Assembly: GCA_049997815.1 (NCBI GenBank)
Contig: JBEKVQ010000001.1
Span: 20,642-84,641 of the forward strand
Length of the DNA: 64,000 nucleotides
Direction: 5' to 3'
Source: Minisyncoccia bacterium
Lineage (GTDB): Bacteria > Patescibacteriota > Minisyncoccia > UBA6257 > GWB1-50-10
The notes beneath the pieces were generated by a model. That model did no database searches. It saw nothing but the letters and a program-made list of their open reading frames with translations, and had not been told where the DNA came from. Of this stretch, positions 31,200 through 54,510 are shown piece after piece. A program made the translations under genes and the position numbers. Position 1 is the stretch's first letter. Each line of letters starts with the position of its first letter.

Positions 31200-31200
31200 T

Positions 31201-36500: not shown

Positions 36501-36920
36501 ATAACGGACGATATCGAATCTCTTCATTACAATACCGCCATTAGCGCTTTAATGATTCTCCTGAACGAACTTGAGAAGGCAAATCCCGACAGAGAGAATA
36601 AAGAAGTGTTTTTGAAACTTCTCGCTCCCTTTGCCCCCCATATAACCGAGGAGCTTTGGCATGAATTGGGCAATCCGGCGTCGATTCATAGAGAATCCTG
36701 GCCAGTCGCCAATCCAAAATTATTGAAAGAGGAGGATTTCGACATGGTGGTTCAGGTGAACGGAAAACTGCGAGCAACCGTCAAAATGCCGAGGGGCATT
36801 GCCCAGAAAGATGCCGAGAAAGCAGCATTGAGCAATGAAAATGTGAGGAATTCCCTTGCCGGGCAGAAACCGAAGAAAATCATTTTCGTCCCCGACCGCT
36901 TAATTAATTTCGTGGTTTGA
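33525..36920 (+). CDS. leuS: leucine--tRNA ligase with two inserted hydrolase domains (alpha/beta serine hydrolase; Nudix)
   Basis: Canonical LeuRS blocks: PYPSAEGLHVGN (HIGH), NWIGKSEG, TTRPDTLFGATY (CP1), RLRDWLISRQRYWG and KMSKSKGN. Insert 1 (aa ~236-415) carries LLHGYTGS and GHSLGG. Insert 2 (aa ~555-690) carries a perfect Nudix box GGKIEDGENDSDTLRREIAEETGY. Confidence 0.9.
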   Translation: MKEYDFQKIEKKWQKRWLEDGTYEPDLVKAKNPFYNLMMFPYPSAEGLHVGNMYAFTGADIYGRMKRMRGYDVFEPIGLDGFGIHSENYALKIGAHPMDQAKISEKRFYEQLRMIGNGFAWNEKVETYNPDYYKWTQWVFTEMWRRGLAYRKKQSVNWCPKDKTVLADEQVIAGKCERCSAVVVKKDMEQWFFRITKYAEKLLKNLDKIDWSERVKIAQRNWIGKSEGALLDFEIKGGVAPSYVLLHGYTGSPKKHFFPWLKKELEKRGAKVYAPELPDAEDPKVYDQAAEVLKSVPFGEDTVLVGHSLGGVVALKVLEKLNKPVRKTVLVTSYNENKFFNDPFEPHTFDWKFDVKKIKANAGNIHILRDMTDDVVPSYQADNLKDVFGGEIFDFSAATPHAWGKKEKEEPEILGHCIDSLRVFTTRPDTLFGATYMVVAPEHGMVGELKEKITNYKEVEAYVKKTSNKSEEERIEEGKEKTGVELKGIKAVNPVNNEEIPVFIADYVLASYGTGAIMAVPAHDERDYEFAKKYKLPIREVVIRKFGETKSGAQERKTVYAVVKHKDKILLVFNKKLNEHQLPGGKIEDGENDSDTLRREIAEETGYDHVTPQTYLGQIDFNYFFRHYKFDSHLRAKGYLVELNDEHKIPVRNSTGENMQSSEWMEADRAIECMKNGTWSGIEGFIKRATGQESLCFSGDGVLVDSDNFDGTDSEKAKWEITKLVGGERKIQYRLRDWLISRQRYWGAPIPMIHCEACASKGDGEQKEMLGWYAVPEKNLPVELPYVKDFRPQGKGESPLASVKEFYEAKCPHCGGKARRETDVSDTFLDSAWYYLRYPSAKEKNKAWDLEMTKKWFPVNLYTGGAEHSVLHLLYVRFVAMAFHDAGWLDFEEPFPKFRAHGLLIKEGAKMSKSKGNVINPDEYIKKFGADSLRMYLMFLAPFEQGGDFRDEAVLGIVRFLDRVWNLYMKEPGVSGWADENVLRLTHRTIKKITDDIESLHYNTAISALMILLNELEKANPDRENKEVFLKLLAPFAPHITEELWHELGNPASIHRESWPVANPKLLKEEDFDMVVQVNGKLRATVKMPRGIAQKDAEKAALSNENVRNSLAGQKPKKIIFVPDRLINFVV

Positions 36921-36937
36921 TTTACCATTAACTAGAA

Positions 36938-37855
36938 ATGAGCAAGATTCTCTGGATAATCGTCATTATAATCGTCTTGGTGGCGCTTTATAACACTTTC
37001 GCTAAGTTGAGTGCCAATGTGAAATTCGAAAGTCTTTCCGGGTTGTTCCGTATTCCCTCCGGTCTTTACCACAGCACCTCCTCCACGGTCGTGTCTGTTT
37101 CCGTTGGGGGAGATACTTATGGTGGCGCGGTGCAGCCGTCCAGAAGCTCACCGGTTCCGCCAAGTGTTGGGACCCAGCCCACCGTGGTTCCGCCAACCGG
37201 TTTCACCACTGGCCAACTTTCCCCCCATTACGGGCAAGTGAAAATAAGTTCCGTCTCCGCCGGGAATTTTCCTAACTCCAATCAGTTTTCTTTATCGGCG
37301 AACTCCCTTAGCGCGCCACTAGATATTACCGGATGGCGCTTGAAATCGAACAACAGGGACATAATGATCCCGAAAGCCGTTTCGAACTACGACCCATCCG
37401 GTTTTTCTCTCGCCTCCGACATTGTCATGGGGAATAACCAGCGCGTTAGTTTTTATAATGCGACCAGCCCGATACTAGTGAATTTAAGATTGAATGAATG
37501 CACCGGTTACCTGAACAATGCGTACAACTTCACCCCCACCCTGCCGAACAATTGCCCTTCCTCATACGACCAATCGGAGATAATATCTTTTTCGGGGTCT
37601 TGCCAAGATATGATACTTTCTCTTTGGGGTTGTTCGGAGCCGACGAAGGGGCAACTAAGTAGCGATCAGTCCTGCAGAACCTTTTTGACCGACCGTTTCA
37701 ATTACAGCGGTTGTTATAAATATCATCGCGGCGATGCGAATTTCTTGAGCAACGAATGGAGCATTTGGCTAAACGGTTCGATGTATTTCGATAACCACGA
37801 CCTCCTGCTCCTTTTCGACAGGGAAGGTCTATTGGTTGATAGATATTCTTCCTGA
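36938..37855 (+). CDS. hypothetical membrane-anchored extracellular protein
   Basis: N-terminal TM helix (ILWIIVIIIVLVALY), a Ser/Thr/Pro-rich linker and a Cys-containing C-terminal domain. Confidence 0.4.
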   Translation: MSKILWIIVIIIVLVALYNTFAKLSANVKFESLSGLFRIPSGLYHSTSSTVVSVSVGGDTYGGAVQPSRSSPVPPSVGTQPTVVPPTGFTTGQLSPHYGQVKISSVSAGNFPNSNQFSLSANSLSAPLDITGWRLKSNNRDIMIPKAVSNYDPSGFSLASDIVMGNNQRVSFYNATSPILVNLRLNECTGYLNNAYNFTPTLPNNCPSSYDQSEIISFSGSCQDMILSLWGCSEPTKGQLSSDQSCRTFLTDRFNYSGCYKYHRGDANFLSNEWSIWLNGSMYFDNHDLLLLFDREGLLVDRYSS

Positions 37856-37875
37856 CCGGCCAGACAATAGCGGGA

Positions 37876-38916
37876 TTATTTTCTTTCGATCAGTGTAACC
37901 ATGACCTCGCGCTCCTTGCCGGCGCGAAGGATTTTTAGTTTCACCTCTTCTCCCACCTTGCAATCGTCCAAAAAATCCTGAAGGGTAGTGTCGGACGTTA
38001 TTTTTTCCCCGTTCCATTCGAGAACAATATCCTGTTCCAGTATGCCCGCCTTATCGGCCGGGCTTTTGGGGATAACGGCGGTTTCGGTCGAATTCTGCCG
38101 GGTAATGTAAGCACCGTATTCGGCAGGCAGGCCCATCTTTTCGCTCAGGTCGTGATTCAACACCAGGTAACGCAGCCCCAGAAGGGGTCGGCGGATGCGC
38201 CCGTACCTTTTGAGGTCGCTCAAATCCCTCTCGGCGGCCTTAATGGGGATGGCAAAACTGATGTTTTGGGCGCCTACAACGACTGCGGCATTAATGCCCA
38301 CGGCGCATCCGCAAATATCCACGAGCGGCCCCCCGGAGTTGCCTGGGTTTATCGCGGCATCCGTTTGGATAAGTCCTCGAAGTTCCTGGACGGGTGCCCG
38401 GGAATCGGATTTTGCCTGAACTGAACGGGAAAGGCCGGAAACAATTCCCCTGGAGACGGTATTTTTGAAGATCCCCAGGGCATTTCCGATAGCGAGCACG
38501 GTTTGGCCCAATTCCAGATTTTCTGAATTGCCCAATTTTACGACCGGCAATGTTTTTCCTGTTTTTATCTTAAGAATCGCCACATCGTTTATAGGATCAC
38601 GGGCTAGAACCTCGGCTTCGTAACTCTCGTCGTCATTCAGGAAGACCGTGTAACTCACGCCGGATTCGGCGATGACGTGCTTGTTGGTCAAGATTATTCC
38701 GCTCTTGTCCACGATGAAGCCGGAGCCGCCGCCGACTTGGACCATACCGTGGGCATCTATTTTGTCTGGCGGAATTTGAAAAGCGGTTGCCTTATTCTTA
38801 TTCGAGGCCGGCAGCTCTTTTTTTAGAGCTTCCAAACTTTTTGATAGAATAATGGAGACCACTGCCGGCATTGTCCGGCGGATGGTTTTGATTATTTTTT
38901 TATCCTTTCCCAGCAT
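37876..38916 (-). CDS. htrA: HtrA/DegP-family serine protease with PDZ domain
   Basis: Catalytic triad context TNKHVI (His), D, GNSGGPLVD (Ser) and a C-terminal PDZ domain. Confidence 0.85.
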   Translation of the reverse strand: MLGKDKKIIKTIRRTMPAVVSIILSKSLEALKKELPASNKNKATAFQIPPDKIDAHGMVQVGGGSGFIVDKSGIILTNKHVIAESGVSYTVFLNDDESYEAEVLARDPINDVAILKIKTGKTLPVVKLGNSENLELGQTVLAIGNALGIFKNTVSRGIVSGLSRSVQAKSDSRAPVQELRGLIQTDAAINPGNSGGPLVDICGCAVGINAAVVVGAQNISFAIPIKAAERDLSDLKRYGRIRRPLLGLRYLVLNHDLSEKMGLPAEYGAYITRQNSTETAVIPKSPADKAGILEQDIVLEWNGEKITSDTTLQDFLDDCKVGEEVKLKILRAGKEREVMVTLIERK

Positions 38917-38917
38917 T

Positions 38918-39400
38918 TTATTGAACGATTATTTTCCCCGTGAGTTGAGCATGCAAATGGTCATGATAATCCCAGCTCCCGATTTTTTCGAATTTGAACG
39001 ACCATGATGAACCCGGCGGAATGCCGCCACAAGCATCAAAAGCAACGCCGGCATTATCCGGACAATGTTCCTGAAGCGTTGTGCCGCTATAAACCGCGTG
39101 GGTCGGATGTACTCCCGAGGCCGGCCAAAAATCGAACGAACTCGAATTTTTAAAAATTACCGTCGCGCCTTTCTGAACCGTTAGAACATTTGGGCTGAAA
39201 CCGTTGTCATTGAAATTGATTATGGGGCTGGAATCCTGATTCGTTCCCCGGGGGACGGTATTCACGGTTACCGGATTGGAATCCAGGGGCGGATTCAGGG
39301 GTGGTGTTAGTCCTGTATTTTTTTCGCTCCGGCTCAATAGGATAAAGCCAAGCGCCAAGACGACGATAACTATGGCTGAGATTGCATATTTTTTAGGCAT
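38918..39400 (-). CDS. membrane-anchored small beta-sandwich protein, possibly cupredoxin-like
   Basis: N-terminal TM helix. Conserved His/Cys positions (HPTH, C, HDHLH) hint at metal binding, but this is tentative. Confidence 0.35.
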   Translation of the reverse strand: MPKKYAISAIVIVVLALGFILLSRSEKNTGLTPPLNPPLDSNPVTVNTVPRGTNQDSSPIINFNDNGFSPNVLTVQKGATVIFKNSSSFDFWPASGVHPTHAVYSGTTLQEHCPDNAGVAFDACGGIPPGSSWSFKFEKIGSWDYHDHLHAQLTGKIIVQ

Positions 39401-39776
39401 AATTTATTTTGTTTCCTGTTATTTTATTCTACCATTTTTAGGGGCATTTCCGAATTACATTGGTGCCTAGGGCCTAGCCAAAACGAAACCACCCCCAAGG
39501 GGGTGGTTGGTCACAAAGTTATACTCTGCGGCTCTTCCTTCTCTTCGGCTTGGCCGCCTTTCTTTTCTTTGCCATTTTAGTTTTATTTTTTGGGCTAACG
39601 CCTTTATTTTCGGAGCTGATGTTGGATTGTCGACCACCAACCACGTCAGTTCCATAGCAACCTGCTATTCTAAGTTAATTATACACTAAAAAATTTTTAA
39701 AAACTGTGGATAACTCTGATTTTCCGATTCATCGCGAAAATTTTTCTGAAAATGAGGAAAGAATACATTATTGCGT

Positions 39777-39795
39777 TCGTTTTTATTGCGGAGGG
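39777..39795. repeat. 19-bp direct repeat tgcggagggtagaggattc (island-distal att-like copy)
   Basis: Identical to 58088-58106, which is the 3' end of tRNA-Ser(CGA). Degenerate similarity to the tRNA continues for a few more bases. Confidence 0.6.
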
Positions 39796-39915
39796 TAGAG
39801 GATTCTCCCTCGCCTCTCGGCTTCGCCTCGGGCTGGGCACCGCCTCGCGTGCCTTCGGCACATGCTCCGGCGTTCTAATCATCACGCGAGCCGAGCAGTC
39901 GGCTCACTTACCCTC
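39777..39915 (-). other. GC-rich tRNA-Ser-like structured remnant at the island junction
   Basis: The ends (gcggagggtag ... ttaccctctcgca) mimic the acceptor arm of tRNA-Ser(CGA). The interior holds GNRA/UUCG-type hairpins (gtgccttcggcac; gagccgagcagtcggctc). A terminator-like hairpin gacgccg-ttta-cg-cggcgtc follows at 39931-39950. Confidence 0.3.
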
Positions 39916-40403
39916 TCGCAAAATTAAGACGCCGTTTACGCGGCGTCATTTTGCGGTGTGTCTCGGTTTAGGACCAAGACCGCTTGAATCAGTATAAGGC
40001 TTCTTTGGGGGTCGTTCAATTTCTGGGAATTGAGGCGTCAAGGTCTGGGGTTAAAACCAGACTCCGAACAGACGGAAAGATGACCAAACACCTAAGGAGA
40101 TAAGAGTGGCTGCAGTGAGGACATATGCAATCCCGAATTCAATTTTTGGATGGATATATATGCCCAATTTTTCACAAATAGCTCTAATCAACGCACGATA
40201 GGTCCAATGTGTGATGCTTCCGATCAAGCTGTTAATCAGAGAAAATATGTTTCTTGTTCGCCTCATTTGAGGAGAATATGACCAAATTAGGTCAGGGTCA
40301 AATGAGACAAATGGGACACCGAAAGGGTATTTCGCGCCCTATCTCATTTCGCTTGGTTGTATCCAAAAAGCCAAAAAATGCCAATTTTTTACGCCCCTCT
40401 ATA

Positions 40404-40880
40404 TTATATAATCCTGCACTCCATGAGGTGACGACAGAGCGCCTCCCGGCTCACAATATATTTTGTTGAGAGTTTATCGAGGTCGGGTTCTTTTTTATAA
40501 TCCGCCCGAAGGAACGCAAGCGGCATCAGGAGTTCGGCGGCGAATTGACTGGCTTCCGCTTCCGGATTGTCCTCGATATTTGGGCCACCGCAGGTGTGCC
40601 CCAGCATGAGGTGGCCGATCTCGTGCGCGATCGTGAATCGCCTCCTCACCCACGCCGTGTCGGGATTGAAGCCGATCGTCGGATAGCCATTAATCATCAC
40701 CAAAAGCCCGTCCACGGCCTTCAACGGAAAACGCAGCACTTCCAAATCGTGCCGCGCTTTCAAATACCGGATAATCTTCGGCAAGAAAATCGGGATTTCC
40801 CCGGCCCGGGCATCCTTGAGAAGCTTCCGGGCGATGTTCCGTATCACGCCTACGCTAGCCCTGACCTCTGTCCTTTCCAT
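40404..40880 (-). CDS. ImmA/IrrE-family zinc metallopeptidase (DUF955)
   Basis: HEIGHLMLGH HExxH motif. Immediately downstream of, and overlapping, an XRE HTH gene, the ImmR-ImmA arrangement of mobile elements. Confidence 0.7.
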   Translation of the reverse strand: MERTEVRASVGVIRNIARKLLKDARAGEIPIFLPKIIRYLKARHDLEVLRFPLKAVDGLLVMINGYPTIGFNPDTAWVRRRFTIAHEIGHLMLGHTCGGPNIEDNPEAEASQFAAELLMPLAFLRADYKKEPDLDKLSTKYIVSREALCRHLMECRII

Positions 40881-41208
40881 GGCGTTTTTCGGCGAGCTCG
40901 ATGAAATGGAGGACCGCCGCCTTATCCTCGTCGGTCAAATTCTTGCTCGCCCGGAGAGCCACTTTTAAATCCATCTTTTTACCCTCCTGACCGAGAAAAT
41001 ATCCGATGTTCTGGTGGAGAACCTCGGCTGCTTTCTGCAAATCTTCGGCCTTGAATCGGCGTTCTCCGGCCTCGATCAAGGACACGGCGGTCGCCGATTC
41101 ATATCCCAATTCCTTGGCGAATTGGGCTTGGGAAAGCCCGGCTTTCTCCCGAGCCTCCCGCAGGCGCTTGCCGATCTCGACGTTCAAGTCCTCACCTTTC
41201 ATAGGCAT
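40855..41208 (-). CDS. XRE-family HTH transcriptional regulator (ImmR-like)
   Basis: IGKRLREAREKAGLSQAQFAKELGYESATAVSLIEAGER is a canonical HTH_3. Confidence 0.75.
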   Translation of the reverse strand: MPMKGEDLNVEIGKRLREAREKAGLSQAQFAKELGYESATAVSLIEAGERRFKAEDLQKAAEVLHQNIGYFLGQEGKKMDLKVALRASKNLTDEDKAAVLHFIELAEKRHGKDRGQG

Positions 41209-41252
41209 GATTATATATTAGCACATTGATATGTTATCCCCATCAGATTGAT

Positions 41253-41281
41253 TTGACAACGGATTAGCATTTTGGTAAACT
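41253..41281 (+). promoter_or_regulatory. putative sigma-70 promoter in the divergent immR / ParB-MTase intergenic region
   Basis: TTGACA (41253-41258), a 17-nt spacer ending in TGG, then TAAACT (41276-41281). Confidence 0.35.
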
Positions 41282-41305
41282 TATATTACCATAACGATAA
41301 ATACC

Positions 41306-42586
41306 ATGTTGCCCAAAAACATTAAAATAGAGCAGGTGCCAGTGAAGGACCTAAAACCCGCCGCGTATAACCCGAGGAAATGGGATGAAAAGGCCCTCGC
41401 TGACATGAAAGAGAGCATTTCCCGCTTCGGCCTCTGCGACCCCCTGATCGTGAACGGGGCTCCGGCACGGAAGAACGTCGTGATCGGCGGCCATCTCCGG
41501 CTGAAGGTCGCGACGCTTCTAGGACACGCCGAGGTGCCCGTCGTCTATCTGAACATTCCGGAGATCGAGCGGGAGAAAGAGCTGAATCTGAGATTGAACA
41601 AAAATGTCGGCGCGTGGGACGAAGAACTCTTGAAGGCGTTTGACACGGATCTCCTCCTCGATGTTGGGTTCACGCCGGACGAACTGAATTCGTTCTTCGA
41701 CGACGTGCTTGAGATTTCTGACGATGGCTTTGATGTTGAAGAAGAGCTCGCAAAAATCACCAAGCCGGAGACGAAGCCCGGCGACTTGTACCAACTGGGC
41801 GGCCATCGCCTGCTCTGCGGCGATGCGCTCGACCCCGCGCAGGTCGCGAAGCTCATGGATACGGAACGCGCTCACATGATATTTTCCGATCCGCCGTACA
41901 ATATCGCCCTCGACTACAGGAAGGGCATCGGCACCAAAGGCAAATACACGACGGAGAAATTGGTCAACGATAGCAAGGGAACAAAAGAATATGAAACGTT
42001 TCTCGGGGACGCGCTCAGGAACGCACTCACCGCGAGCCGGCCCGACGCGCACATCTTCTTCTGGTGCGATGAAAAGTACGTGTGGCTGCTCCAGACGCTC
42101 TATGAGAAGTACGGCGTGGCGAACCGGCGGCTTTGCCTCTGGGTCAAAAACAACTTCGACCCCACGCCGCAGGTGGCGTTCAACAAAGTGATTGAACTGT
42201 GCGTATACGGCACGAAAGGCAGCCCCGCGCTCAATCCGAGCATCCGGAATCTTTCCGAGGTGCTGAACAAGGAAGCGAACTCCGTCGGCCTCTACGACGA
42301 CCTCATGTCAATCGTCCAGCTCTGGCTCGTGAAGCGGGACACGACGACCGACTACGAGCACCCCACCCAGAAGCCGATCACGCTCTGCGAAAAGCCAATC
42401 AAGCGGTGCAGTGCGCCGGGCGACATAATCCTCGACCTCTTCGGCGGGTCGGGCAGCACTCTGATCGCCGCAGAACAATTGAAGCGCCGGGCATTCCTCG
42501 TCGAGATCGACCCGACCTTCTGCGACCTCATCGTCCGCCGATGGGAGCATTCCACCGGAAGCCATGCCAAACTCATCAAAAAATAA
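41306..42586 (+). CDS. ParB-like nuclease domain fused to an N6-adenine/N4-cytosine DNA methyltransferase
   Basis: N-terminal ParB/Srx region (LKPAAYNPRKW...LIVN...GGHLRLKVA). MTase motif IV FSDPPYNI and motif I DLFGGSGSTLIAAEQ (beta-class order). Confidence 0.8.
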   Translation: MLPKNIKIEQVPVKDLKPAAYNPRKWDEKALADMKESISRFGLCDPLIVNGAPARKNVVIGGHLRLKVATLLGHAEVPVVYLNIPEIEREKELNLRLNKNVGAWDEELLKAFDTDLLLDVGFTPDELNSFFDDVLEISDDGFDVEEELAKITKPETKPGDLYQLGGHRLLCGDALDPAQVAKLMDTERAHMIFSDPPYNIALDYRKGIGTKGKYTTEKLVNDSKGTKEYETFLGDALRNALTASRPDAHIFFWCDEKYVWLLQTLYEKYGVANRRLCLWVKNNFDPTPQVAFNKVIELCVYGTKGSPALNPSIRNLSEVLNKEANSVGLYDDLMSIVQLWLVKRDTTTDYEHPTQKPITLCEKPIKRCSAPGDIILDLFGGSGSTLIAAEQLKRRAFLVEIDPTFCDLIVRRWEHSTGSHAKLIKK

Positions 42587-43328
42587 AATATGGAAACTGG
42601 GAAATCATCGGTTGCTCCTCGGAGATGCCGCAAAGCAAGAGGATATTGCCCGGGTTTTGGGTAAAGAAAAGGCATCTCTCTTGCTCACCGACCCGCCCTA
42701 CGGCGTGGGCTACGTCGAAGGCAAACAGGAATTTCTGGCGATCATCCACAAAGGAAGCGGCGGCGCAAAGTTTTCCGCCATTGCGGGCGATTCCCCCGAA
42801 GATGACTACTACAACTTTTCCCTCCGGTGGCTCGAGGCCGTGCGGCCGCACCTCGCGGAGAAAAACAGCTTCTATATCTTCAATGGCGACACGAAGCTGC
42901 GGGAACTTTTAAACGCCCTTTATGATGCCCGCTATGTAAAGTCCGCGCTGCTCATCTGGATCAAAAACCATCTCGTCATCGGCCGCAAGGATTACCATCC
43001 CCAGCACGAACTTATCGTCTACGGCTGGTACGGCAGGCATGCTTTCTTCGGACAAAAAGACAAAAGCGCCCTCTTTTATCCCAAGCCGCAAAAGAGCACG
43101 CTCCATCCCACCATGAAACCGCCCGCCCTCCTGCGGCGGCTCATCTACCATTCAAGCCAGCCGGGAGACGCGGTGCTCGATCCCTTCGGCGGGTCGGGTT
43201 CCACCCTGATCGCCTGCGAGCATCTCAGCCGAAGGTGCTTCATGATCGAGCGCGATGAGGGATATTGCCGGACCATCATCGACCGGTGGCAGAAGCTTAC
43301 CAAACAAAAGGCCAAATCACTCGCATGA
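42564..43328 (+). CDS. DNA methyltransferase (beta-class N6A/N4C), paralogue of the preceding MTase domain
   Basis: LGNHRLLLGDA (compare LGGHRLLCGDA in the previous gene), LTDPPYGVGY, DPFGGSGSTLIACE. Overlaps the upstream gene by 23 bp. Confidence 0.8.
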   Translation: MPNSSKNKIWKLGNHRLLLGDAAKQEDIARVLGKEKASLLLTDPPYGVGYVEGKQEFLAIIHKGSGGAKFSAIAGDSPEDDYYNFSLRWLEAVRPHLAEKNSFYIFNGDTKLRELLNALYDARYVKSALLIWIKNHLVIGRKDYHPQHELIVYGWYGRHAFFGQKDKSALFYPKPQKSTLHPTMKPPALLRRLIYHSSQPGDAVLDPFGGSGSTLIACEHLSRRCFMIERDEGYCRTIIDRWQKLTKQKAKSLA

Positions 43329-43717
43329 ACACGGATAGCGATGACAATACCAAAACGCCGAACGTCTACAAGAAGCGCGAATTCGAATCGTATGTCTTGT
43401 GGCGGTCGATGCCTTCGATCCTGCGCGGCCAGCCGCGGCACGTTATCGAAAGGCTGGGCATCGACGACGAGCTCGCCATATCGCTCCTCGATATCAAGAA
43501 CCAGACCGAATTCGCCCAGCGCTTCGGAATCAAGGACTTGGGGACCTTGACCGAGTGGAACAAGAAGATCGAGGAGGCGGGCGGCCTCATGAAGAGCATC
43601 CACCTCTGGGCGAAGCGGCTCACCCCGAATGTGGTCTCGGCCCTCTACCGCGAGGCCACGAAAACCGGGCGGGCAGCCGAAGTCAAAGCGTGGATGGAAA
43701 TAGTCGAAGGAATGTAA
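43325..43717 (+). CDS. hypothetical protein (130 aa)
   Basis: ATGA start/stop overlap with the MTase gene. Predicted helical. No motif recognised. Confidence 0.4.
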   Translation: MNTDSDDNTKTPNVYKKREFESYVLWRSMPSILRGQPRHVIERLGIDDELAISLLDIKNQTEFAQRFGIKDLGTLTEWNKKIEEAGGLMKSIHLWAKRLTPNVVSALYREATKTGRAAEVKAWMEIVEGM

Positions 43718-43725
43718 CCAACACC

Positions 43726-43938
43726 ATGGATCAAGCAAACAAAAACAAAGTGCTGACGATCGACGAGGCGGCGGCCATTCTTTCCGAGACGCTCGAAGAG
43801 GTGACTCAGCGGAAAACCTCCCTGCGCCGGGCGATGACGATCTCGCGCCTCGCGCTTGCGCTCGCGAAGGTCGCAGAGATCAAAGACCTCAAGGACCGGG
43901 TCGAGTTTCTTGAGCAGGCGTTAAAGAAAAGGAAATGA
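43726..43938 (+). CDS. hypothetical small coiled-coil protein (70 aa)
   Basis: Tightly packed in the operon. Heptad-like helical sequence. Confidence 0.35.
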   Translation: MDQANKNKVLTIDEAAAILSETLEEVTQRKTSLRRAMTISRLALALAKVAEIKDLKDRVEFLEQALKKRK

Positions 43939-43939
43939 C

Positions 43940-45787
43940 ATGAAAAACATTTTGAACATATTGAGCCGGGAGAACAATCTCACGCCGCGGGAAAAGTTTC
44001 TCCTCTTGGTCAAAAACGACACCCAAAAAGCCAAAACCGGCAAAGACATGCTGACCGAGGCCGACAAAGAAGCGCTCGAAAACTGGCATGCCAAGACGAG
44101 CGAGGAAGCCCGAGAATGGAACCAGTTAAACGAGGGCTGGAAATACGGCGGCCGCATGGACATCGAGGCCGAGTTTGCCTATAAAGACGCCCAGGTGGCC
44201 TACCTGTCTCAGCTGCCCATCATCGTCGACCTTTTATATTACCCGGGAGATCGGCGGATGGGCTCCTGCATCGATGGCCTCAAGCGCCTCAAAAAAGTGA
44301 CGATAGACGAGGCGGTCGCGATCGCCCAAAAGCAGAAAGCGGCAAAACTCAGCGAAGGCTTGGATTTTGAATATGCCGTCTATCAACTAGCCTTTGAACT
44401 TTTGAGCGATGATGACAAAAAAAGCATGAAAGCGCTTTACGAGGACGTAGAGTTCGATCATCAGTATCTCGATCAGGAGGAAATCATCGCCCACCTCTAC
44501 CACGGCCGAAAAACACTGAGCCGGGAAGCGAAGGAAAAACTGGCTGAGCTCGTAGCCGAGCAGAGTTACAACGGGTTTGCTAAGGAGTACCAGCTGTTCC
44601 ACTATTTCGCCTGCATTCCCGTCCTTGAGGTGGCGAGATACTATCTCAAGCACCACGGAATCGAAATTGCGGGCGCACCCATGCCAAAAAATCAAGAAGC
44701 GCAGGATGGGGATGAAGACACCCACAATGCGGTAATGAAAGCTATGCAAAAATACGCCGAGGAGCATGGCATCACCATCAAGGCCATGCTACGCGAAGCC
44801 TGCCTCCGGTGGATTGACGAAGACCTCCTTGAGGAATATCTGCCCCTTGCGGCAAGCAACAGCGCGGACCTTTTGGAGAGGTGGTTTGGGAGCAAGGGCG
44901 AGGCCCGGAAAATCTTGCTCAAGCACGTTCAATCGGGCGAACTCGCCTTTAGAGACCGGACGGATAAGGAAACTAGGAAGGAAAAATTGTATAGCAAGGG
45001 TCTTGGCGACCGCGAGGCTGAATCGGCCCGGATGGCTCTGGAGAACTTCAACCTCAAGCCCATCCTCAAGGGGGAGCTTGACGAGAAAGTCGCCTTTGAG
45101 ACATTCAGTGATAGAGTCATTACTGGTGAAAGCCTCTATGCGTTCACCGGAAATTATCGGTTTGTTAAGGAATTCAAAAAACGGGTCGATACCTACGATG
45201 CCAACCTGGGTCTCGTCTACGCCGAGAGCGACCCCGAACAAAAAGGCGAACACCTCGACCAGGAGCTTCTGATCTGCGACCTGACCGATAAAGGCGAGGC
45301 CGCCCCTTTCAGCTTCTACGGCATCAATATGACGCTGCTCTCGAGCATCTTCCGAGGACACTCCTTATTCGAAGAATTCCGGAAAAACGGCAAACTCTGG
45401 ATCAGATTCAAGAATGCGGAGATACAAAAGACGTTTATGGAACGGAGGCAAACGCTCATGGATGGGTACGCAAATCTGCTTGCGATCGAGGGTGTTTTCA
45501 AAAAACTCTCCCCGATGTACGAGATCGATATGGCCGAGCATGTCTCCGGCCGGCTCGCCACGGTACGGGAGTTCATCGAACAGTACAACCAGGCGGTGCG
45601 CACAGCGACGAACACCGACGACAAATCGCGGAAATCAAAAAACACTTTCCTTCAAGAGAAAGAGGAAATGCTGTTTGAAGACGACATAGTGATCGATATC
45701 GACGCTATAGAACCGAACCACGACATCGTGGGGGAACATGAAGCGAAACTGAGAGGGATTTTCCCCGTCTTCGGCGACGGTCGGTAA
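43940..45787 (+). CDS. hypothetical protein (615 aa), no recognisable domain
   Basis: Long uninterrupted ORF, translationally coupled to the preceding small genes. Acidic and helical-rich. Confidence 0.5.
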   Translation: MKNILNILSRENNLTPREKFLLLVKNDTQKAKTGKDMLTEADKEALENWHAKTSEEAREWNQLNEGWKYGGRMDIEAEFAYKDAQVAYLSQLPIIVDLLYYPGDRRMGSCIDGLKRLKKVTIDEAVAIAQKQKAAKLSEGLDFEYAVYQLAFELLSDDDKKSMKALYEDVEFDHQYLDQEEIIAHLYHGRKTLSREAKEKLAELVAEQSYNGFAKEYQLFHYFACIPVLEVARYYLKHHGIEIAGAPMPKNQEAQDGDEDTHNAVMKAMQKYAEEHGITIKAMLREACLRWIDEDLLEEYLPLAASNSADLLERWFGSKGEARKILLKHVQSGELAFRDRTDKETRKEKLYSKGLGDREAESARMALENFNLKPILKGELDEKVAFETFSDRVITGESLYAFTGNYRFVKEFKKRVDTYDANLGLVYAESDPEQKGEHLDQELLICDLTDKGEAAPFSFYGINMTLLSSIFRGHSLFEEFRKNGKLWIRFKNAEIQKTFMERRQTLMDGYANLLAIEGVFKKLSPMYEIDMAEHVSGRLATVREFIEQYNQAVRTATNTDDKSRKSKNTFLQEKEEMLFEDDIVIDIDAIEPNHDIVGEHEAKLRGIFPVFGDGR

Positions 45788-45840
45788 CGCAGAAATCCCA
45801 GCCAACGACCCCTTGCGGTACCCGAACTGGATCGAGTGGT

Positions 45841-46905
45841 TTAGGGCGATTCTAACCGAGAGTCATTCCAGTAATCGTGAGACTGAAACCAAAACTCGTT
45901 TTTCAGCCTCTCGCTCAATCTTCGTGTGTTGGCGTGAGACAGAACGCCGAGATATGACTGAATGGACTGCTCGAAACTCAGCTTAGAGATTTTTCTAGTC
46001 TCGTATTTTTTCATCCTTTCTTCCATTTTTTTAAACATCCTATGTTTGGTTTTTGACCGGATGAGTCTGTGGTGAGGGAAAATAACATAGCCAAGGAAAT
46101 CCACTCCTTGACATACTGAACGAAGTATGCTTTTATTAGGATGTAACTTAAGTGCGAGTTCATTTTCAAGAAATTCAGAGATCGGATTCAGAAGCTTTTC
46201 CAATTCTTCGGGGCTTTCCGAGACCAGGGCGAAATCATCGGTGTAGCGGACGTAGTGTTTTACTTTCAACCTATGCTTCACAAACTGATCAAGTTCGTTC
46301 ATATAGACATTGGCAAAGAGCTGGGAGGTCAGATTCCCTATGGGGATGCCCTTCCCCGGTGCACTCTCGTAACTCCTCACAATAGACTCCAAAAGCCACA
46401 GCGCATCAACGTCTTTGATGCGTTTTTTGATTATGGAAAGCAGGATTTCGTGGCTAACGGAGTCAAAGAACTTCCGGACATCACATTTCAGTACAAAACA
46501 GGGATGAGTGTTGTTCCGGCTTACTTCCCTCATAATCTTCTCCAAAACTTCCACCCCTTTATGAGTGCCAAAACCCACCCGACACGAAAACGAAGTTGGA
46601 ATGAAGGTCGGCTCGAAGACCGGGTTCACGACCGAGAAGACTGCGTGATGGAGAATCCGATCCCGAACCGTGGCCTTGTGGATATGACGCAGTTTTGGGT
46701 CAGTGATGTAAAAGCCTTTATACGGACCATGCTTATAGGTCTTACTTTTCAAATCCCGGTGAAGTTGAAAAATATTTCGCTCAAGATTCCATTCGAAACT
46801 CTGGACATCCGGCTTACCCCGCTTATCGCTCTTGAACGAATCCCAGGCCGAGAAGAGGTTCTCCGGCGAGATAATTCTTTCAAAAATGTTTTTATAGATC
46901 TTCAT
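45841..46905 (-). CDS. diversity-generating retroelement reverse transcriptase
   Basis: RT motifs including GIPIGNLTSQLFANVYM (the DGR-specific I/LGxxxSQ in place of the group II QG...) and YVRYTDDFAL (YxDD). Only 354 aa, with no maturase or endonuclease domain. Confidence 0.8.
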   Translation of the reverse strand: MKIYKNIFERIISPENLFSAWDSFKSDKRGKPDVQSFEWNLERNIFQLHRDLKSKTYKHGPYKGFYITDPKLRHIHKATVRDRILHHAVFSVVNPVFEPTFIPTSFSCRVGFGTHKGVEVLEKIMREVSRNNTHPCFVLKCDVRKFFDSVSHEILLSIIKKRIKDVDALWLLESIVRSYESAPGKGIPIGNLTSQLFANVYMNELDQFVKHRLKVKHYVRYTDDFALVSESPEELEKLLNPISEFLENELALKLHPNKSILRSVCQGVDFLGYVIFPHHRLIRSKTKHRMFKKMEERMKKYETRKISKLSFEQSIQSYLGVLSHANTRRLSERLKNEFWFQSHDYWNDSRLESP

Positions 46906-46924
46906 AAAAGGTATTCAATAACCT

Positions 46925-47275
46925 ATGGATGATTTCGACATTCCGATATTCAAAAAATCATACGAACTTTACAAAACGTTCTATGGATACCGTACCATTA
47001 TTGCCAAGCAGGACAGATACGCCATATGGCAGAGATCCGAGGATACAACCTTGGAGATTCTCGAAGGGATCCTTGCAGCCAGTCAGGCGTATAAAACGGA
47101 CAAACTACCAGCCCTTGAGAAAGTCAGTCTCAAACTGAACATTCTGCGCGTCTTTCTTCGGCTCATGAAAGAGGTAAAAACGCTGGATAATAAGAAGTAC
47201 ATCGCGCTCCAGTCGCTCGTGGATGAGATCGGGAGAATGCTCGGCGGATGGATTAAATCCACCAAAGAAAGATAG
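46925..47275 (+). CDS. avd: DGR accessory variability determinant (Avd; four-helix-bundle / 23S rRNA IVS-protein family)
   Basis: C-terminus EIGRMLGGWIKSTKER closely parallels BPP-1 Avd EVGRILGSWIARVNRK. Length is 116 aa. A hairpin cccgct-atttt-agcggg follows the stop. Confidence 0.7.
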   Translation: MDDFDIPIFKKSYELYKTFYGYRTIIAKQDRYAIWQRSEDTTLEILEGILAASQAYKTDKLPALEKVSLKLNILRVFLRLMKEVKTLDNKKYIALQSLVDEIGRMLGGWIKSTKER

Positions 47276-47327
47276 GGAGAATGCCCGCTATTTTAGCGGG
47301 TATTCCACCTTCATTGAGGAGTGACTT

Positions 47328-47452
47328 CGAGACGAAGCCGGAAGCCGAACCATAGTTGTCGTTAGCATTGCTGACCCAGTTCGTGTTGAACTTGACCTTG
47401 TCGTCGTTGAACTTGAAGTTCGGGGCGTTGTCGAAATCGCCATCGGCCTCAG
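47328..47452 (-). repeat. DGR template repeat (TR)
   Basis: 125 bp. On the minus strand it reads GAC AAC GCC CCG AAC TTC AAG TTC AAC ..., with 8 AAC codons. Matches the VR except at its adenines. Confidence 0.8.
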
Positions 47453-47722
47453 AAATCATTGCCCTCGTCCATCCACGTCACTGGAAATCAAGGTTTACCG
47501 CTCAATAAGAGCTTATATCCTCTCAATCCTGTATTTTATCCGGCAGCATCTCTAAAAAGAAAACCTGCACCAGACAAGAGCAAGCAGTAATCTCCTCAAT
47601 ACAATACGCTCTTGGAAACCTTGACCTCCAAGATTCTGATTGTTTTTCTCTTCCTTGAAGAGAGAGTTCGGTGACGGCAATCCGTGAACTACCGTTCATG
47701 AACCTAATCTCATTCTGAATTA

Positions 47723-47764
47723 TACAAAAATAAAGAGGTTATCCACAATGAAGTGAATAACCTC
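47723..47764 (-). terminator. rho-independent terminator of the DGR target gene
   Basis: gaggttat...ataacctc hairpin with a U-run on the minus strand, downstream of the target-gene stop. Confidence 0.5.
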
Positions 47765-47840
47765 TCAAAAATATGACGCGGACGAAAGGATCAAACGACA
47801 AAACGTCAAAAGGTCCAAGGGTCCAAGGTACAATGTTCGA

Positions 47841-48755
47841 TTACTGCGAGACGAAGCCGGAAGCCGAACCACAGGCGTCGCCAGCAGCGCCGACCCAGCG
47901 CGCGCCGAACCGGACCCGGCCGTCGTCGAACCCGAAGCGCGGGGCGCGGCCGAAAACGCCATCGGCCCCAGGAGAGAATTCGTCGCCGGCACAGTCGATC
48001 CAAAGATCGTCATAGTTCTGTAGACGTTCCGGATGAGTAAGAATCATTATCCCTACTGCGAAAGCACCAAGACCGAACTGGTTGTCTTTCATGACTTCCA
48101 GTGCCCGACGGACTGAACGGCCTCTGTGAAGGATGCCGAATTGCGCGGCCACGACGAGAATGTCGTGATCCTTCTGTTCTTCGCCAAGCTTCTGGAAAAT
48201 CTTCGCCGATTTCTCGGACTGACGGAGATTCTTCGGACCAAGCTGACCTTCACGGTAGTTGTAGAACTTGCCGTCGCGGGTCTTCTTGATCAGATCCAGA
48301 ACCTTCTGGACTGCTTCTCCGTAGGTCGGAGCAACACTCTGCCACTTCGGGATAGCAAACCATCCTTCGGCGTTTGCGGGAAGCGGCTGTTCGGCCAGTT
48401 TCTCGTCGGCGAATCCGATGCCGGGGATGAGCTGGCGCAGGATGTTGGTCTGCTCGGTGATACCCTTCGGTTTGTATCCGGAGAGGTATCCGTATTTCGA
48501 CGATACTTCTTCACTGGCGAACTGATTCGAAACGGAAAGTTCTTTTACTTTCGCAATCGAGAATTCCAACATCGCGGAGCGATATTCATCTCCCCGCCCG
48601 AGAAAACACTGGAGACTGTCTTTGTTGAAACCAGCCTTTTCAACGGCTATTTCGGCCACTTCTTCATTCAAGTCTTGAATGAATCGTTTGACCTGCTTTT
48701 TCTGACCGGGAGTGATCCCGTTAGATGTGATCGATGTATTTTTCATCGTCATCAC
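47841..48755 (-). CDS. DGR variable (target) protein
   Basis: 304-aa ORF whose last ~41 codons are the VR (…GADGVFGRAPRFGFDDGRVRFGARWVGAAGDACGSASGFVSQ). The C-terminal Gly/Trp-rich region is compatible with a C-type-lectin/FGE-like variable fold, but this is inferred. Confidence 0.7.
   Translation of the reverse strand: MMTMKNTSITSNGITPGQKKQVKRFIQDLNEEVAEIAVEKAGFNKDSLQCFLGRGDEYRSAMLEFSIAKVKELSVSNQFASEEVSSKYGYLSGYKPKGITEQTNILRQLIPGIGFADEKLAEQPLPANAEGWFAIPKWQSVAPTYGEAVQKVLDLIKKTRDGKFYNYREGQLGPKNLRQSEKSAKIFQKLGEEQKDHDILVVAAQFGILHRGRSVRRALEVMKDNQFGLGAFAVGIMILTHPERLQNYDDLWIDCAGDEFSPGADGVFGRAPRFGFDDGRVRFGARWVGAAGDACGSASGFVSQ
47847..47971 (-). repeat. DGR variable repeat (VR) at the 3' end of the target gene
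   Basis: 125 bp aligned to the TR with 28 mismatches, every one at a TR adenine. The shared A-free 3' end GGTTCGGCTTCCGGCTTCGTCTCG is IMH-like. Lies 3 bp from the target-gene stop. Confidence 0.8.
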
Positions 48756-48994
48756 CCTTTCAATTAGTGAATGTATGGGTTATTTAAATGAGCGTTCCTG
48801 AGATTCAAGAACGGTTTGATATTACCATATTATGGTATAAAAGTCAAATCAATAAATAGCTCTGTTTATAGAGGTATTCTTTAAAATAGTCTGGATTCTC
48901 AATGTTCAGCCTTATACTGAATTTTTGAGTAAGCTTTCAGTGGGCTCTTGGGACGCTCTGGATTCCTCCGGGGCTTCGCGTCATCTCTTGTGGT

Positions 48995-50341
48995 ATGAAT
49001 ACCCAAACCATGGGGGCGAACGGGACGGGAGCCTCCACAACAATCCCGGCCCAAGTAAAGGTCAAATACCTGCTCTATGCGAGGAAAAGCACGGAATCGG
49101 AGGAGCGGCAGATACTCTCCATTGATTCGCAGGTGAAGGAGATGCTTCAGCTGGCCGAGCGCGAGGGGTTGGAAATCTCCGAGATTCGGCGCGAAAGCCA
49201 CTCGGCCAAAGCGACCGGACAACGTCCGGTGTTCAACGAGATTATCAATGATATTCGCCTCGGCAAGTTCAACGGCATTCTCACCTGGGCGGCGGATCGG
49301 TTATCGAGAAATGCCGGGGATCTGGGCAAGCTCGTGGATCTGATGGATGAGAAACTCCTTGTTGATATCCGGACGTACGGCCAGCGATTCAGTAATTCGC
49401 CGAACGAGAAGTTTCTTCTCATGATCCTCGGGTCACAGGCGAAGCTCGAGAACGATAATCGGGGCGTGAACGTGAAGCGCGGACTGCGAACGCGATGCGA
49501 GATGGGATTGCGGCCGGGCGTAGCGCCCACTGGCTATCTCAACGAGAAAAGAATGGATAGAAAATGCCAAGTGCTCATCGACCCCGATCGCGCCCATATC
49601 ATCAAAAAGATTTTTGAGAAGGTAGCTAATGAACATTGGAGCGGAAGGAAGGTCTATCACTGGCTACGCTTCGATCTGAACTTCCGCACGAAGAGCAACC
49701 ACCACCTCTCGCTCGGAAACATCTATTTAATGATTCAGAATCACTTCTATTACGGAAGATTCGAGTATCCGGAAAAGAGCGGCATGTGGTATGACGGCAA
49801 GCACCAGCCGATTATAAGCAAAGAGTTGTTCGATAAAGTGCAGGAGCAACTGAAACGGGACCAGATCGTGCGGTCGGAAATAAAAGAATTCGCATTTACG
49901 AAGCTCATGACCTGCGGGCTCTGCGGATCGGGCGTGAGCGCCGAGGAGAAATATAAGAAGCTCAAAGATGGCACGTCGGCGCGATATGTCTACTATGGCT
50001 GCAGCCGGGCGCGGGACAAGAACTGCAAAGCCGGATATATACGCGAAGAGGATCTCATTGAACAGCTCGTGAAGGTTATGGACAAGCTCGATATAAGTGA
50101 GATCGGTATGCAGCATAAATTTGAAGAGGAAGTAGCAAGATTCAATAAATTCCAAAAGGGCATCCTCGGGATGCAGGGTATAAAAACCAATGCGAAAGAC
50201 GTAGATCTGCGTACCTACGCGAAGTATCTTCTCCGGGAAGGGAGTGCCATCGAAAAGCGTGAGCTACTGGCGTGTGTGAAGAGTAAATTTATATTCAAAA
50301 ACAAGCTTGTGCATCTAGAAAAAGCACTAACTGAGCAATAA
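48995..50341 (+). CDS. large serine recombinase
   Basis: Resolvase catalytic domain (YARKSTESEERQ with the nucleophilic Ser), a recombinase domain and a C-terminal zinc ribbon (CGLCGS...YYGCS). Confidence 0.8.
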   Translation: MNTQTMGANGTGASTTIPAQVKVKYLLYARKSTESEERQILSIDSQVKEMLQLAEREGLEISEIRRESHSAKATGQRPVFNEIINDIRLGKFNGILTWAADRLSRNAGDLGKLVDLMDEKLLVDIRTYGQRFSNSPNEKFLLMILGSQAKLENDNRGVNVKRGLRTRCEMGLRPGVAPTGYLNEKRMDRKCQVLIDPDRAHIIKKIFEKVANEHWSGRKVYHWLRFDLNFRTKSNHHLSLGNIYLMIQNHFYYGRFEYPEKSGMWYDGKHQPIISKELFDKVQEQLKRDQIVRSEIKEFAFTKLMTCGLCGSGVSAEEKYKKLKDGTSARYVYYGCSRARDKNCKAGYIREEDLIEQLVKVMDKLDISEIGMQHKFEEEVARFNKFQKGILGMQGIKTNAKDVDLRTYAKYLLREGSAIEKRELLACVKSKFIFKNKLVHLEKALTEQ

Positions 50342-50378
50342 AACCCTTATTTTATAAGGATTTTTATCAATTTAACCT

Positions 50379-52121
50379 ATGAAAACCTATGAACACTTGA
50401 CTTTATATTTGCAGTCTGATAGACTTGAATTACAAGCTATGAGAAAGGATATACAAGCAAAACTTAATGGAATGCCGGAATTGCTCTCTATCAGCCAGGT
50501 AGCTGAGATTTTCAATATTCACCCCGACACCCTCCGAAACTGGGAGAAGGAAGGCATTTTAGTGCCTCTACGGGCCGGTAAGCGCGGAGACCGCAAATAC
50601 CGCCCCCAGGACATTCAAACCATTGTGGACAAAATGGGCAGTAAGCTCACCCTGCCACAACTTGAGCAGTTCCTTTGGAAAAGCGCCGATATTCTCCGCG
50701 GCAAGATCGACAGCTCCGATTACAAGAAATATATATTCGGACTCCTCTTTTACAAACGAATCAGTGACGTTTGGGACGAGGAATATAAGCGAGTGATGGA
50801 AGAATATAAAGATGAGACGGTCGCGCGAGCTGATTACAACCACCGTTTTCAAGTACCTCAGGATTGCCGGTGGTCAGTTATTGAGGAGCAGGCGGAAAAT
50901 ATCGGCCCCAAGCTTAATGGAATCTTTGATAAGCTCACGAACGCCAACAGCCCGAAGCTGGACAAAATTTTTGACGACCTCGATTTTGCACACAAAGATA
51001 AATTTCCGAATGAAACCACTCAGCGTTTAATAAATCACTTTTCGCAATACAACTTTAGCGATACGTATATCAACTCCGATCTTCTTGGGGACGCATACGA
51101 GTATCTCATTAAGCAGTTTGCGGCTGATGCCGGGAAGAAGGGTGGGGAATTTTATACCCCGCGAGAAGTTGAGCGCGTTATCATCCAAATTCTGAAGCCA
51201 CACAAGAAAGATCACATATATGATCCTACCGTTGGATCAGGCGGTTTTCTTCTTGAAGCGTATCACCACCTAAAGGAAACAGATGGCGAAAAAATTGCAC
51301 GGACACTTTATCTCTATGGGCAAGAAATAAACATCGGAACATTTGCGATCGCGAAGATTAATATGTTTCTCCACGGACTTGACGCTGCAGATGTCCAGCG
51401 CGGTGACACACTCGCGAATCCTCAATTCTTGAACCCGAACGGAACGCTAAAAACATTCGACATCTGCGTAGCAAATCCTCCCTACTCAATTAACGACTGG
51501 GAAAGCGAGCTGTTTAAAGAAAGATATGGCCGAATTGAAGGTTACGAAATACCGCCGAAGAGTAATGCGGACTATGCTTTCGTACTCCATATCATAAAGT
51601 CAATGAATTCAAATGGCCGCGCAGGTATCGTATTGCCTCACGGTGTTTTATTTCGCGGTGGTGCTGAAGGACGTATCCGTGAACAGATTCTCAAGAACGA
51701 CCTTATTGAGGCGGTGATTGCGCTCCCACCTAAGCTTTTTTATGGTACCGGCATACCGGCGGCGATTCTCATTTTCAACAGAAATAAGTCGGAGGACCAT
51801 AAAAATAAAGTCTTCATCATTGATGCCGAGAAGGACTTTTCCGAAGGCAAAAACCAGAACTCACTACGCGTGCAGGATATCCAAAAGATTGTGAGGGCAT
51901 ATGAAAACTACACAGACATTGAGGGCTATGCTCGAGTCGTTGGCCTTAAAGAGATTGAGGAGAACGAGTACAGCCTCGGTGCGCGCAGATATATTGAAAA
52001 CGACGACAAGGAAGAGACTATAGATGTTTCTGCCGTTCGAAAGGAACTCCTCGCGATTCAAAAGGAACGCGCGGATATAGATAAAAAGGTTGAGGGATTT
52101 CTCTCGGATCTTAAATATTGA
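50379..52121 (+). CDS. hsdM: Type I restriction-modification methyltransferase subunit HsdM with an N-terminal MerR/Xis-type HTH extension
   Basis: HsdM N-domain, FYTPREV, and VANPPYSI (motif IV NPPY). The first ~85 aa form a HTH_17-like domain (LLSISQVAEIFNIHPDTLRNWEKEGIL). Confidence 0.9.
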   Translation: MKTYEHLTLYLQSDRLELQAMRKDIQAKLNGMPELLSISQVAEIFNIHPDTLRNWEKEGILVPLRAGKRGDRKYRPQDIQTIVDKMGSKLTLPQLEQFLWKSADILRGKIDSSDYKKYIFGLLFYKRISDVWDEEYKRVMEEYKDETVARADYNHRFQVPQDCRWSVIEEQAENIGPKLNGIFDKLTNANSPKLDKIFDDLDFAHKDKFPNETTQRLINHFSQYNFSDTYINSDLLGDAYEYLIKQFAADAGKKGGEFYTPREVERVIIQILKPHKKDHIYDPTVGSGGFLLEAYHHLKETDGEKIARTLYLYGQEINIGTFAIAKINMFLHGLDAADVQRGDTLANPQFLNPNGTLKTFDICVANPPYSINDWESELFKERYGRIEGYEIPPKSNADYAFVLHIIKSMNSNGRAGIVLPHGVLFRGGAEGRIREQILKNDLIEAVIALPPKLFYGTGIPAAILIFNRNKSEDHKNKVFIIDAEKDFSEGKNQNSLRVQDIQKIVRAYENYTDIEGYARVVGLKEIEENEYSLGARRYIENDDKEETIDVSAVRKELLAIQKERADIDKKVEGFLSDLKY

Positions 52122-52122
52122 T

Positions 52123-53412: not shown

Positions 53413-53418
53413 ATTATT

Positions 53419-54507: not shown

Positions 54508-54510
54508 TTT

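Follow-up and report, generated by a model that had tools for sequence, protein, structure and literature searches.

Islands of the staphylococcal pathogenicity island and phage-inducible chromosomal island type (SaPI/PICI), as well as the phage-inducible chromosomal minimalist islands (PICMI), are small integrative elements that occupy a fixed site, carry a repressor switch and a short late operon for packaging or hijack, and lack capsid and tail genes. Here, we describe a mobile island in a Minisyncoccia bacterium (Patescibacteriota), carried on a 64,000-nucleotide stretch of DNA (assembly GCA_049997815.1, contig JBEKVQ010000001.1, positions 20,642 to 84,641), which is called the window below and whose own numbering is used throughout. 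The gene organization of the island appears satellite-like, resembling that of a phage satellite or of a defense-carrying island such as PICI/PICMI and P4-like elements. Our study focuses on three of its genes, A, B, and C, whose products belong to no known protein family and which stand, in the lineage of the window, where sister islands of the same family carry the genes for the small and large terminase subunits (TerS and TerL).

The likeness to SaPI/PICI and PICMI extends to several traits, since the Patescibacteria islands measure ~6.5 to 18 kb, use a fixed site, possess a repressor switch and variable defense cargo, have no capsid or tail genes, and contain a short late operon, which includes TerS and TerL in the sister islands. 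They differ in using as integrase a large serine recombinase (LSR), which targets tRNA-Ser genes at their 3' end, in having a late operon that opens with one or two orphan methyltransferases (MTases), and in that the lineage of the window has three proteins without known relatives instead of a terminase. Moreover, the host belongs to the Patescibacteria, for which no satellite description was found in the literature. P4-like satellites likewise combine a constant backbone with hotspots in which defense systems are swapped, as do the two cargo slots found here, but the islands have no homology to P4 backbone genes and differ in recombinase class and in regulation. In the late region of a temperate phage (Streptococcus phage Javan630), a ParB_N-fused MTase ~35% identical to that of the window lies directly upstream of the packaging genes. 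The TerS/TerL-type sister islands retain this order, whereas in the window the MTases are followed by A, B, and C, not by TerS, TerL, and portal genes, and no structural genes come after them.

Two further systems share single traits with these islands. Staphylococcal cassette chromosome elements (SCCmec) are LSR islands at the 3' end of a conserved gene, with swappable cargo and conserved ORFs (open reading frames) of long-unknown function by the recombinase genes. The SCC ORFs next to ccr proved to encode helicase, polymerase, and single-stranded DNA (ssDNA)-binding proteins, but C shows no helicase, polymerase, or ssDNA-binding fold, and both the target and the host phylum differ. In ImmR/ImmA of ICEBs1 and in CapH/CapP, an Xre repressor and an M78 peptidase are encoded beside the operon that they control and are usually divergent from it, as in the window; this likeness concerns the regulators only and fits the mobile-element and the defense readings alike.

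Genes A, B, and C and their operon

Gene A (43325-43717, plus strand) encodes an all-helical protein of 130 aa with a putative helix-turn-helix (HTH), and gene B (43726-43938, plus strand) encodes a basic protein of 70 aa (pI 9.7) without family match. Gene C (43940-45787, plus strand) encodes an acidic, mostly helical multidomain protein of 615 aa (pI 5.27; 111 D+E versus 87 K+R) without known fold relative, for which the AlphaFold2 model reaches a predicted local distance difference test (pLDDT) score of 85 and a predicted template modeling (pTM) score of 0.65. The trio is preceded by a ParB_N-fused N6/N4 DNA MTase (41306-42586, plus strand; Pfam ParB_N and N6_N4_Mtase; phrog_498, 7e-106) and by a second N6/N4 DNA MTase, MTase2 (42564-43328, plus strand; Pfam N6_N4_Mtase, 5.7e-31). 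The TGA stop of MTase2 (43326-43328) overlaps the ATG of A at 43325 to form ATGA, and a single nucleotide separates the TGA stop of B from the ATG of C at 43940. A first-pass annotation, made from the letters of the window, had reported three coupled ORFs of 130, 70, and 615 aa behind tandem MTases and had described the longest product as acidic and helical; the coordinates, the couplings, and both protein properties were confirmed.

ParB-MTase, MTase2, A, B, and C are five co-oriented genes behind a single candidate promoter (41253-41281, plus strand), found by consensus scan, which consists of TTGACA, a 17-nt spacer, and a TG-extended TAAACT and is divergent from the Xre promoter. Both the -35 and the extended -10 (TTGACA-17-TGnTAAAcT) are kept in the five loci compared, and no strong internal promoter or terminator was found in the operon. 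We infer that this motif is the candidate promoter of the five-gene operon.

Two interchangeable modules in one island family

In the set of loci found through C (L001 to L038), the order and strand of ParB-MTase, MTase, A, B, and C are kept wherever the contig permits, with L007 as the exception, and this holds even in a divergent subfamily in which C is 23 to 31% identical. B was found in every C-anchored locus, the Xre repressor and M78 peptidase pair usually lies upstream of the operon, and an LSR gene occurs 0 to 8 kb downstream in ~15 of ~26 distinct elements. In the simplest elements (L018, L026, and L035), C directly adjoins the recombinase gene. A diversity-generating retroelement (DGR) is present in ~10 of the ~25 distinct elements with enough downstream sequence, and its position and orientation vary; being absent from most elements and variably placed, it is cargo. 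Of all parts of this island lineage, A-B-C is the most constant, and it is not accessory. Synteny with mobile-element genes is very strongly conserved, and the idea of a new accessory module, raised by the first-pass annotation, is not tenable. Neither TerS nor TerL was found in the C-anchored loci.

As all of these loci were found through C, the backbone status of A-B-C could be circular, and a second search was thus anchored on the recombinase. It yielded 80 loci with a recombinase 49 to 93% identical to that of the window, none of which contains a B-like or C-like ORF by hmmsearch. TerL-like genes occur in 25 of them, and 6 more have a TerS-like gene only. The recurring order is ParB-MTase, an optional further MTase, TerS (140 to 170 aa), TerL (~490 to 590 aa), recombinase, optional cargo, and tRNA-Ser. 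The terminase identity is confirmed by Pfam (GpA_ATPase, 1e-18; Terminase_6C, 4e-5; Sf6_terminase; HTH_Tnp_1_2) and by Walker A/B motifs. The recombinase of L117 is 93% identical to that of the window, yet this locus has the TerS/TerL module. L054, also of the terminase type, shares the right arm of the window island, there abutting tRNA-Ser(gct). At the lower end of the size range, L128 is a minimal island of ~6.5 kb with a 251-aa gene, two MTases, TerS, TerL, recombinase, and tRNA-Ser. No capsid or portal was detected among ten sister-island proteins scanned against PHROGs, and the ORF maps revealed no portal-sized gene after TerL. Altogether, A-B-C and TerS-TerL are mutually exclusive, interchangeable modules at one slot of one satellite-like island family.

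The terminase-type loci L064 and L066 encode an A-like protein (hhalign probability 96.6%, E 7e-10), whose gene directly precedes that of the ParB-MTase. A would then be a DNA-binding or regulatory component common to both island types.

Two loci of the C-anchored set depart from the usual arrangement. In L007 (947-3899), no MTases precede A-B-C, and the place directly ahead of A is taken by a C-terminal serine recombinase fragment in opposite orientation; the locus is a rearranged or decayed copy or else an assembly artifact. L032 (6395-12318) retains intact copies of Xre, M78, the two MTases, A, B, and C and has no recombinase; the genes of its right flank (HATPase_c, EamA, and GARS) match the chromosomal genes found beyond the recombinase in L003. 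L032 looks like a stranded island copy still under selection.

Searches for relatives of A, B, and C

No Pfam, PHROGs, NCBIfam, or PADLOC family matched A, B, or C above threshold, in single-sequence as well as in per-member scans, which agrees with the first-pass remark that none of them has a motif that can be placed. PDB sequence-profile searches gave no match, and the C structure had no match in BFVD with E<=1e-3. An exhaustive HMMER profile search with C among 1.84 billion representatives returned only 234 matches, including a subfamily of 490 to 516 aa that is likewise without a Pfam domain. No relative outside the protein's own family was thus obtained, and the C family is closed, with no fused known domain. 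No account of the A-B-C proteins or of their islands was found in the literature.

Weak similarities were also recorded. In 22 of 56 members of the C family, residues 36 to 63 match DUF4880/FecR_N (the FecR N-terminal domain), the best E being 7e-4; this is a lead only. A has a weak recurrent match to HTH_28 in per-member scans. For B, 1 of 19 members matches phrog_51 (E=0.34) and 2 of 19 match DUF1804 (E=0.0026), both at noise level.

Known phage functions were considered for each protein. Identity of C with TerL was rejected by hhalign against the TerL profile of the sister islands (probability 0.09%). TerL, portal, and capsid were all rejected for C, which has no P-loop (Walker A/B) among its conserved columns, no BFVD match, and no match to the TerL profile. 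Neither A nor B qualifies as TerS, no TerS family of Pfam, PHROGs, or NCBIfam being matched at E<=0.1; hhalign of A against the islands' own TerS gave a probability of 0.2%, and A and B against Mu gp27 remained below 1% each. The first-pass proposal of a small-terminase-like HTH protein at 43325 must hence be abandoned, given the absence of a TerS match and the coexistence of an A-like gene with TerS.

Conservation and selection

At 90% identity, the homologues form 213 clusters for C and 152 for A, all from Patescibacteria metagenome-assembled genomes or metagenomes, and all annotated as hypothetical. Among all proteins of the element, A is conserved best (70 to 90% identity) and C evolves fastest. 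In the comparison with L001, in which dS is saturated, A has a dN of 0.05 and both B and C have ~0.2; compared with L014, dN/dS is 0.12 to 0.25, and overall it is ~0.05 to 0.25 in comparisons with unsaturated dS. A, B, and C are intact genes under strong purifying selection. Such selection, together with intact ORFs in more than 200 clusters, excludes decay, contrary to the first-pass suggestion of decayed phage genes.

Island limits and integration site

The whole mobile island spans 39957-58087 (18,131 bp), as delimited by the empty-site contig L041, which joins window 28918-39956 directly to 58088-64000, both parts being 100% identical, with a 5-nt overlap. The location of the three genes inside a tRNA-integrated island, as proposed at first pass, was thereby established with exact limits. 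The distal junction core TGCGG (CCGCA on the tRNA strand) lies at 39952-39956, and the left arm begins at 39957. On the other side, the right arm (58035-58087) adjoins the integration target tRNA-Ser(cga) (58089-58176, minus strand), in which the core CCGCA (58088-58092) corresponds to the last four acceptor-stem bases and the discriminator. The right arm is 82% identical to that of L042 and 87 to 88% identical to those of L049 and L054. The predicted attP junction contains gagacacaCCGCAgacaaggcg. Many loci have a recombinase homologue beside the 3' end of a tRNA-Ser gene, and the LSR of the window probably catalyzed the insertion.

A sister element of ~18.4 kb (contig ERZ27250144, comprising L027 and L042) is inserted at the CCGCA of the alternative target tRNA-Ser(tga) (58490-58577, plus strand; core at 58574-58578) in a chromosome backbone ~100% identical to that of the window, in which the tRNA-Ser(cga) site is empty. 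It faces its tRNA in the same orientation, and its two arms are conserved as well: its left end, in L027, and the left arm of the window island (39957-40046) share 95.6% identity. The island is mobile, and it occurs in peat and in groundwater. No circular excised contig was found among the 38 loci.

The sister element is 92% identical to the window island, in a mosaic fashion. The MTases, A, B, Avd, and most of the DGR reverse transcriptase (RT) are 98 to 100% identical between both elements, while Xre/ImmA, the DGR target, and the recombinase are 72 to 93% identical (at the nucleotide or protein level). Within C, codons ~108 to 407 (44261-45160) have 63 to 78% nucleotide identity, with 99 to 100% on both sides, and this tract has a dN of 0.195 and a dS of 2.1. 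A hypervariable specificity domain in C was rejected: as the tract that diverges from L027 spans the most conserved region of the C family, it is a recombination tract. Comparable divergent stretches extend over Xre (40961-41110), the DGR target, and the recombinase, and the whole pattern would be explained by frequent homologous exchange among co-circulating islands.

Two observations concern the tRNA targets. The 3' part of tRNA-Ser(cga) (58089-58106) recurs as an 18-nt copy (gcggagggtagaggattc) at 39788-39805, in the chromosome flank ~150 nt past the tRNA. It was rejected as the island boundary, since its presence in the empty-site contig assigns it to the chromosome flank; an earlier integration or excision at the same tRNA may have left it as a scar. 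In L094, ARAGORN called a tRNA-Ser with anticodon ACT (14918-15005) beside tRNA-Ser(gct), downstream of the island recombinase, which may be a miscalled or island-modified copy at the attachment (att) site.

Regulators, cargo, and neighboring genes

Upstream of the operon, the window island encodes on the minus strand an Xre-type HTH repressor (40855-41208; Pfam HTH_3, 1.3e-12) and an ImmA/IrrE-type M78 metallopeptidase (40404-40880) with a HEIGH motif, assigned by NCBIfam to the spr1629-family repressor/antitoxin, with Peptidase_M78 in its orthologues. The LSR gene (48995-50341, plus strand; Pfam Resolvase, 1.2e-19; Recombinase, 9.7e-15; Zn_ribbon_recom, 1.4e-9) separates two cargo slots, from C to the recombinase and from the recombinase to the tRNA. 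Across related islands, the cargo includes DGR, type I restriction-modification (R-M) with Shedu, GmrSD with an MTase, AAA_5/VWA, PemK, and Dcm/Vsr. Beyond its recombinase, the sister element of L027/L042 carries Dcm and Vsr together with six other genes, so that in this slot its cargo differs completely from that of the window. No replication, conjugation, or capsid genes are recognizable in the window island.

Slot 1 of the window is occupied by the DGR (45841-48755), which consists of RT (45841-46905, minus strand), Avd (46925-47275, plus strand), a template repeat (TR; 47324-47452), a variable repeat (VR; 47843-47971), and a target gene (47841-48755, minus strand; 304 aa, no Pfam domain) that contains the VR. 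Avd is divergent from RT, with TR downstream of Avd, and this head-to-head RT/Avd arrangement recurs in DGR-bearing related islands in either overall orientation. The stop of C lies 54 nt from the end of the convergent RT gene. The DGR thus abuts A-B-C, as stated at first pass, but their link is incidental. The window has a single TR/VR pair and no VR copy in A, B, or C.

Slot 2 (50379-57994, plus strand) holds a type I R-M system (HsdM, HsdS, and HsdR), Shedu, and a YgjP peptidase; the whole block is missing from the empty site. The Shedu gene, sduA (SduA_C; 53419-54507), is embedded between hsdS and hsdR, a MerR-type HTH is located near the N-terminus of HsdM (residues 35 to 82), and the YgjP-like metallopeptidase is the last gene of the R-M operon. 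Four loci with a divergent C (L036, L037, L038, and L033) have, downstream of the recombinase gene, a CsoR-type repressor together with genes for copper handling (P-type ATPase with HMA, multicopper oxidase, DUF305, and DUF411), which may be island cargo or mark a preferred insertion neighborhood. Outside the island, the leucyl-tRNA synthetase gene (33525-36920, plus strand; 1131 aa), conserved in sister genomes, has insertions around its editing domain, namely an alpha/beta-hydrolase (Ser_hydrolase/Abhydrolase_6; residues ~243 to 395) and a NUDIX domain (~557 to 670).

Discussion

Our results argue with high confidence for A-B-C as a functional backbone of a mobile island. Since no replication, conjugation, or capsid genes are recognizable on the window island, A-B-C is the sole candidate for a life-cycle function of this kind. 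We tentatively propose that it acts in DNA transfer or packaging hijack after induction, a role that we consider plausible rather than probable. The hijack role of A-B-C would follow from its position. In the proposed model, the Xre repressor would be removed, probably through ImmA, and the two MTases would modify the island DNA, which would then survive restriction in the next host. A-B-C would take over the job of TerS/TerL in the sister islands and bring the excised island DNA into a transfer vehicle, the most likely route being hijack of the packaging machinery or particles of a helper phage by an island with no terminase of its own. A, through its HTH, would be the sequence-specific DNA-binding or regulatory part, the translationally coupled B and C would act as a complex, and C, which is large, helical, and fast evolving, may contact helper or host proteins. 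The most novel, but rather unlikely, variant would be that B and C, with A as their DNA-recognition partner, form a previously unknown terminase-independent device loading methylated island DNA into helper capsids or another vehicle. The packaging idea of the first-pass annotation gains indirect positional support from TerS and TerL in the same slot, although C is not TerL, portal, or capsid.

Nevertheless, several observations weigh against a role in transfer or packaging. Occupying the same slot is no proof of the same function, and no helper phage is known for these islands. The coexistence of an A-like gene with TerS in L064 and L066 indicates that A is not the replacement of TerS. Of the recombinase-anchored loci, 31 have 8 kb or more of sequence upstream, and 14 of these contain neither module. 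No C homologue was found in IMG/VR viral contigs by pattern scan and tblastn, and the closest TerL relatives there are islands of the same TerS/TerL kind. By tblastn, A and C had no match among INPHARED phages, and C had none among PLSDB plasmids. Finally, the five-gene operon is intact in L030 and L032 with no recombinase within 10 kb, and an operon without recombinase fits a module that is useful or addictive by itself.

The latter point leads to the rival that survives best, in our opinion unlikely but possible, namely, an MTase-linked defense or addiction module in which the MTases mark self DNA and A-B-C is a restriction-like or abortive sensor/effector. Xre and M78 would gate its expression, as CapH/CapP gate CBASS (cyclic oligonucleotide-based antiphage signaling system), and the island would be a mobile defense island with this system as its most constant cargo. 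Apart from the rearranged L007, B and C never occur without MTases, two N6_N4 MTases are genetically coupled to them in the same operon, and the overlap of the MTase2 stop with the start of A means that synthesis of the MTase comes first, as is typical in R-M operons. The same MTases, however, accompany TerS/TerL in sister islands and occur in ordinary phages without B and C, and hence they are not dedicated antidotes. A putative HTH in A, as in R-M controller proteins, the fast evolution of C with its swapped central tract, and the persistence of the operon in L030 and L032 without a recombinase nearby all comply with a defense module, as does the remaining cargo (type I R-M and Shedu in the window; GmrSD, PemK, and AAA_5/VWA in relatives). 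Against this stands the lack of a recognizable effector (nuclease, ATPase, or toxin) or of a match to a known defense protein, and such a module would leave the exclusivity with terminase genes at one slot unexplained.

LSRs need an element-encoded recombination directionality factor (RDF), and the known RDFs are small, diverse, and unrecognizable by homology. A and/or B could be the RDF for excision, with C handling the excised circle (replication initiation or maintenance), in analogy to the conserved ORFs beside ccr in SCCmec. B is indeed small and basic, C abuts the recombinase gene in L018, L026, and L035, the operon is under a lysogeny-type switch, and there is no other candidate for excision or replication on the island. 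We regard such a recombinase accessory or replication module as quite improbable, because B and C are missing from islands whose recombinase is 93% identical and thus are not the obligatory RDF of this recombinase. Moreover, the operon persists without a nearby recombinase, it pairs with recombinases down to 29% identity (L035), and divergent elements carry D5_N or AAA_25 helicases besides the operon.

That A-B-C represents DGR accessory genes or functionless phage remnants, as the 54 nt between C and RT and the DGR in ~10 of ~25 elements might suggest, is effectively excluded by the absence of the DGR from most elements, its variable position and orientation, the confinement of the only VR to the 304-aa target, and the strong purifying selection on intact ORFs in more than 200 clusters.

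Patescibacteria (candidate phyla radiation) account for a large share of bacterial diversity, and to our knowledge almost nothing is known of gene movement among them. Our study defines a widespread family of tRNA-Ser-targeting LSR islands, for which it provides exact ends and a natural empty site; DGRs, R-M systems, Shedu, and other defense genes are shuttled in the two cargo slots of these islands. The compact pair of recombinase and att site (core CCGCA at tRNA-Ser) could become a genetic tool for a phylum that has few. At the heart of the family are two interchangeable core modules, either the terminase pair or A-B-C with its confidently modeled 615-aa member lacking any fold relative, which raises the testable question of what can replace a terminase in such an island. 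If A-B-C were indeed a terminase-independent device, it would add a third strategy to the two in which an island supplies its own TerS or its own TerS and TerL.

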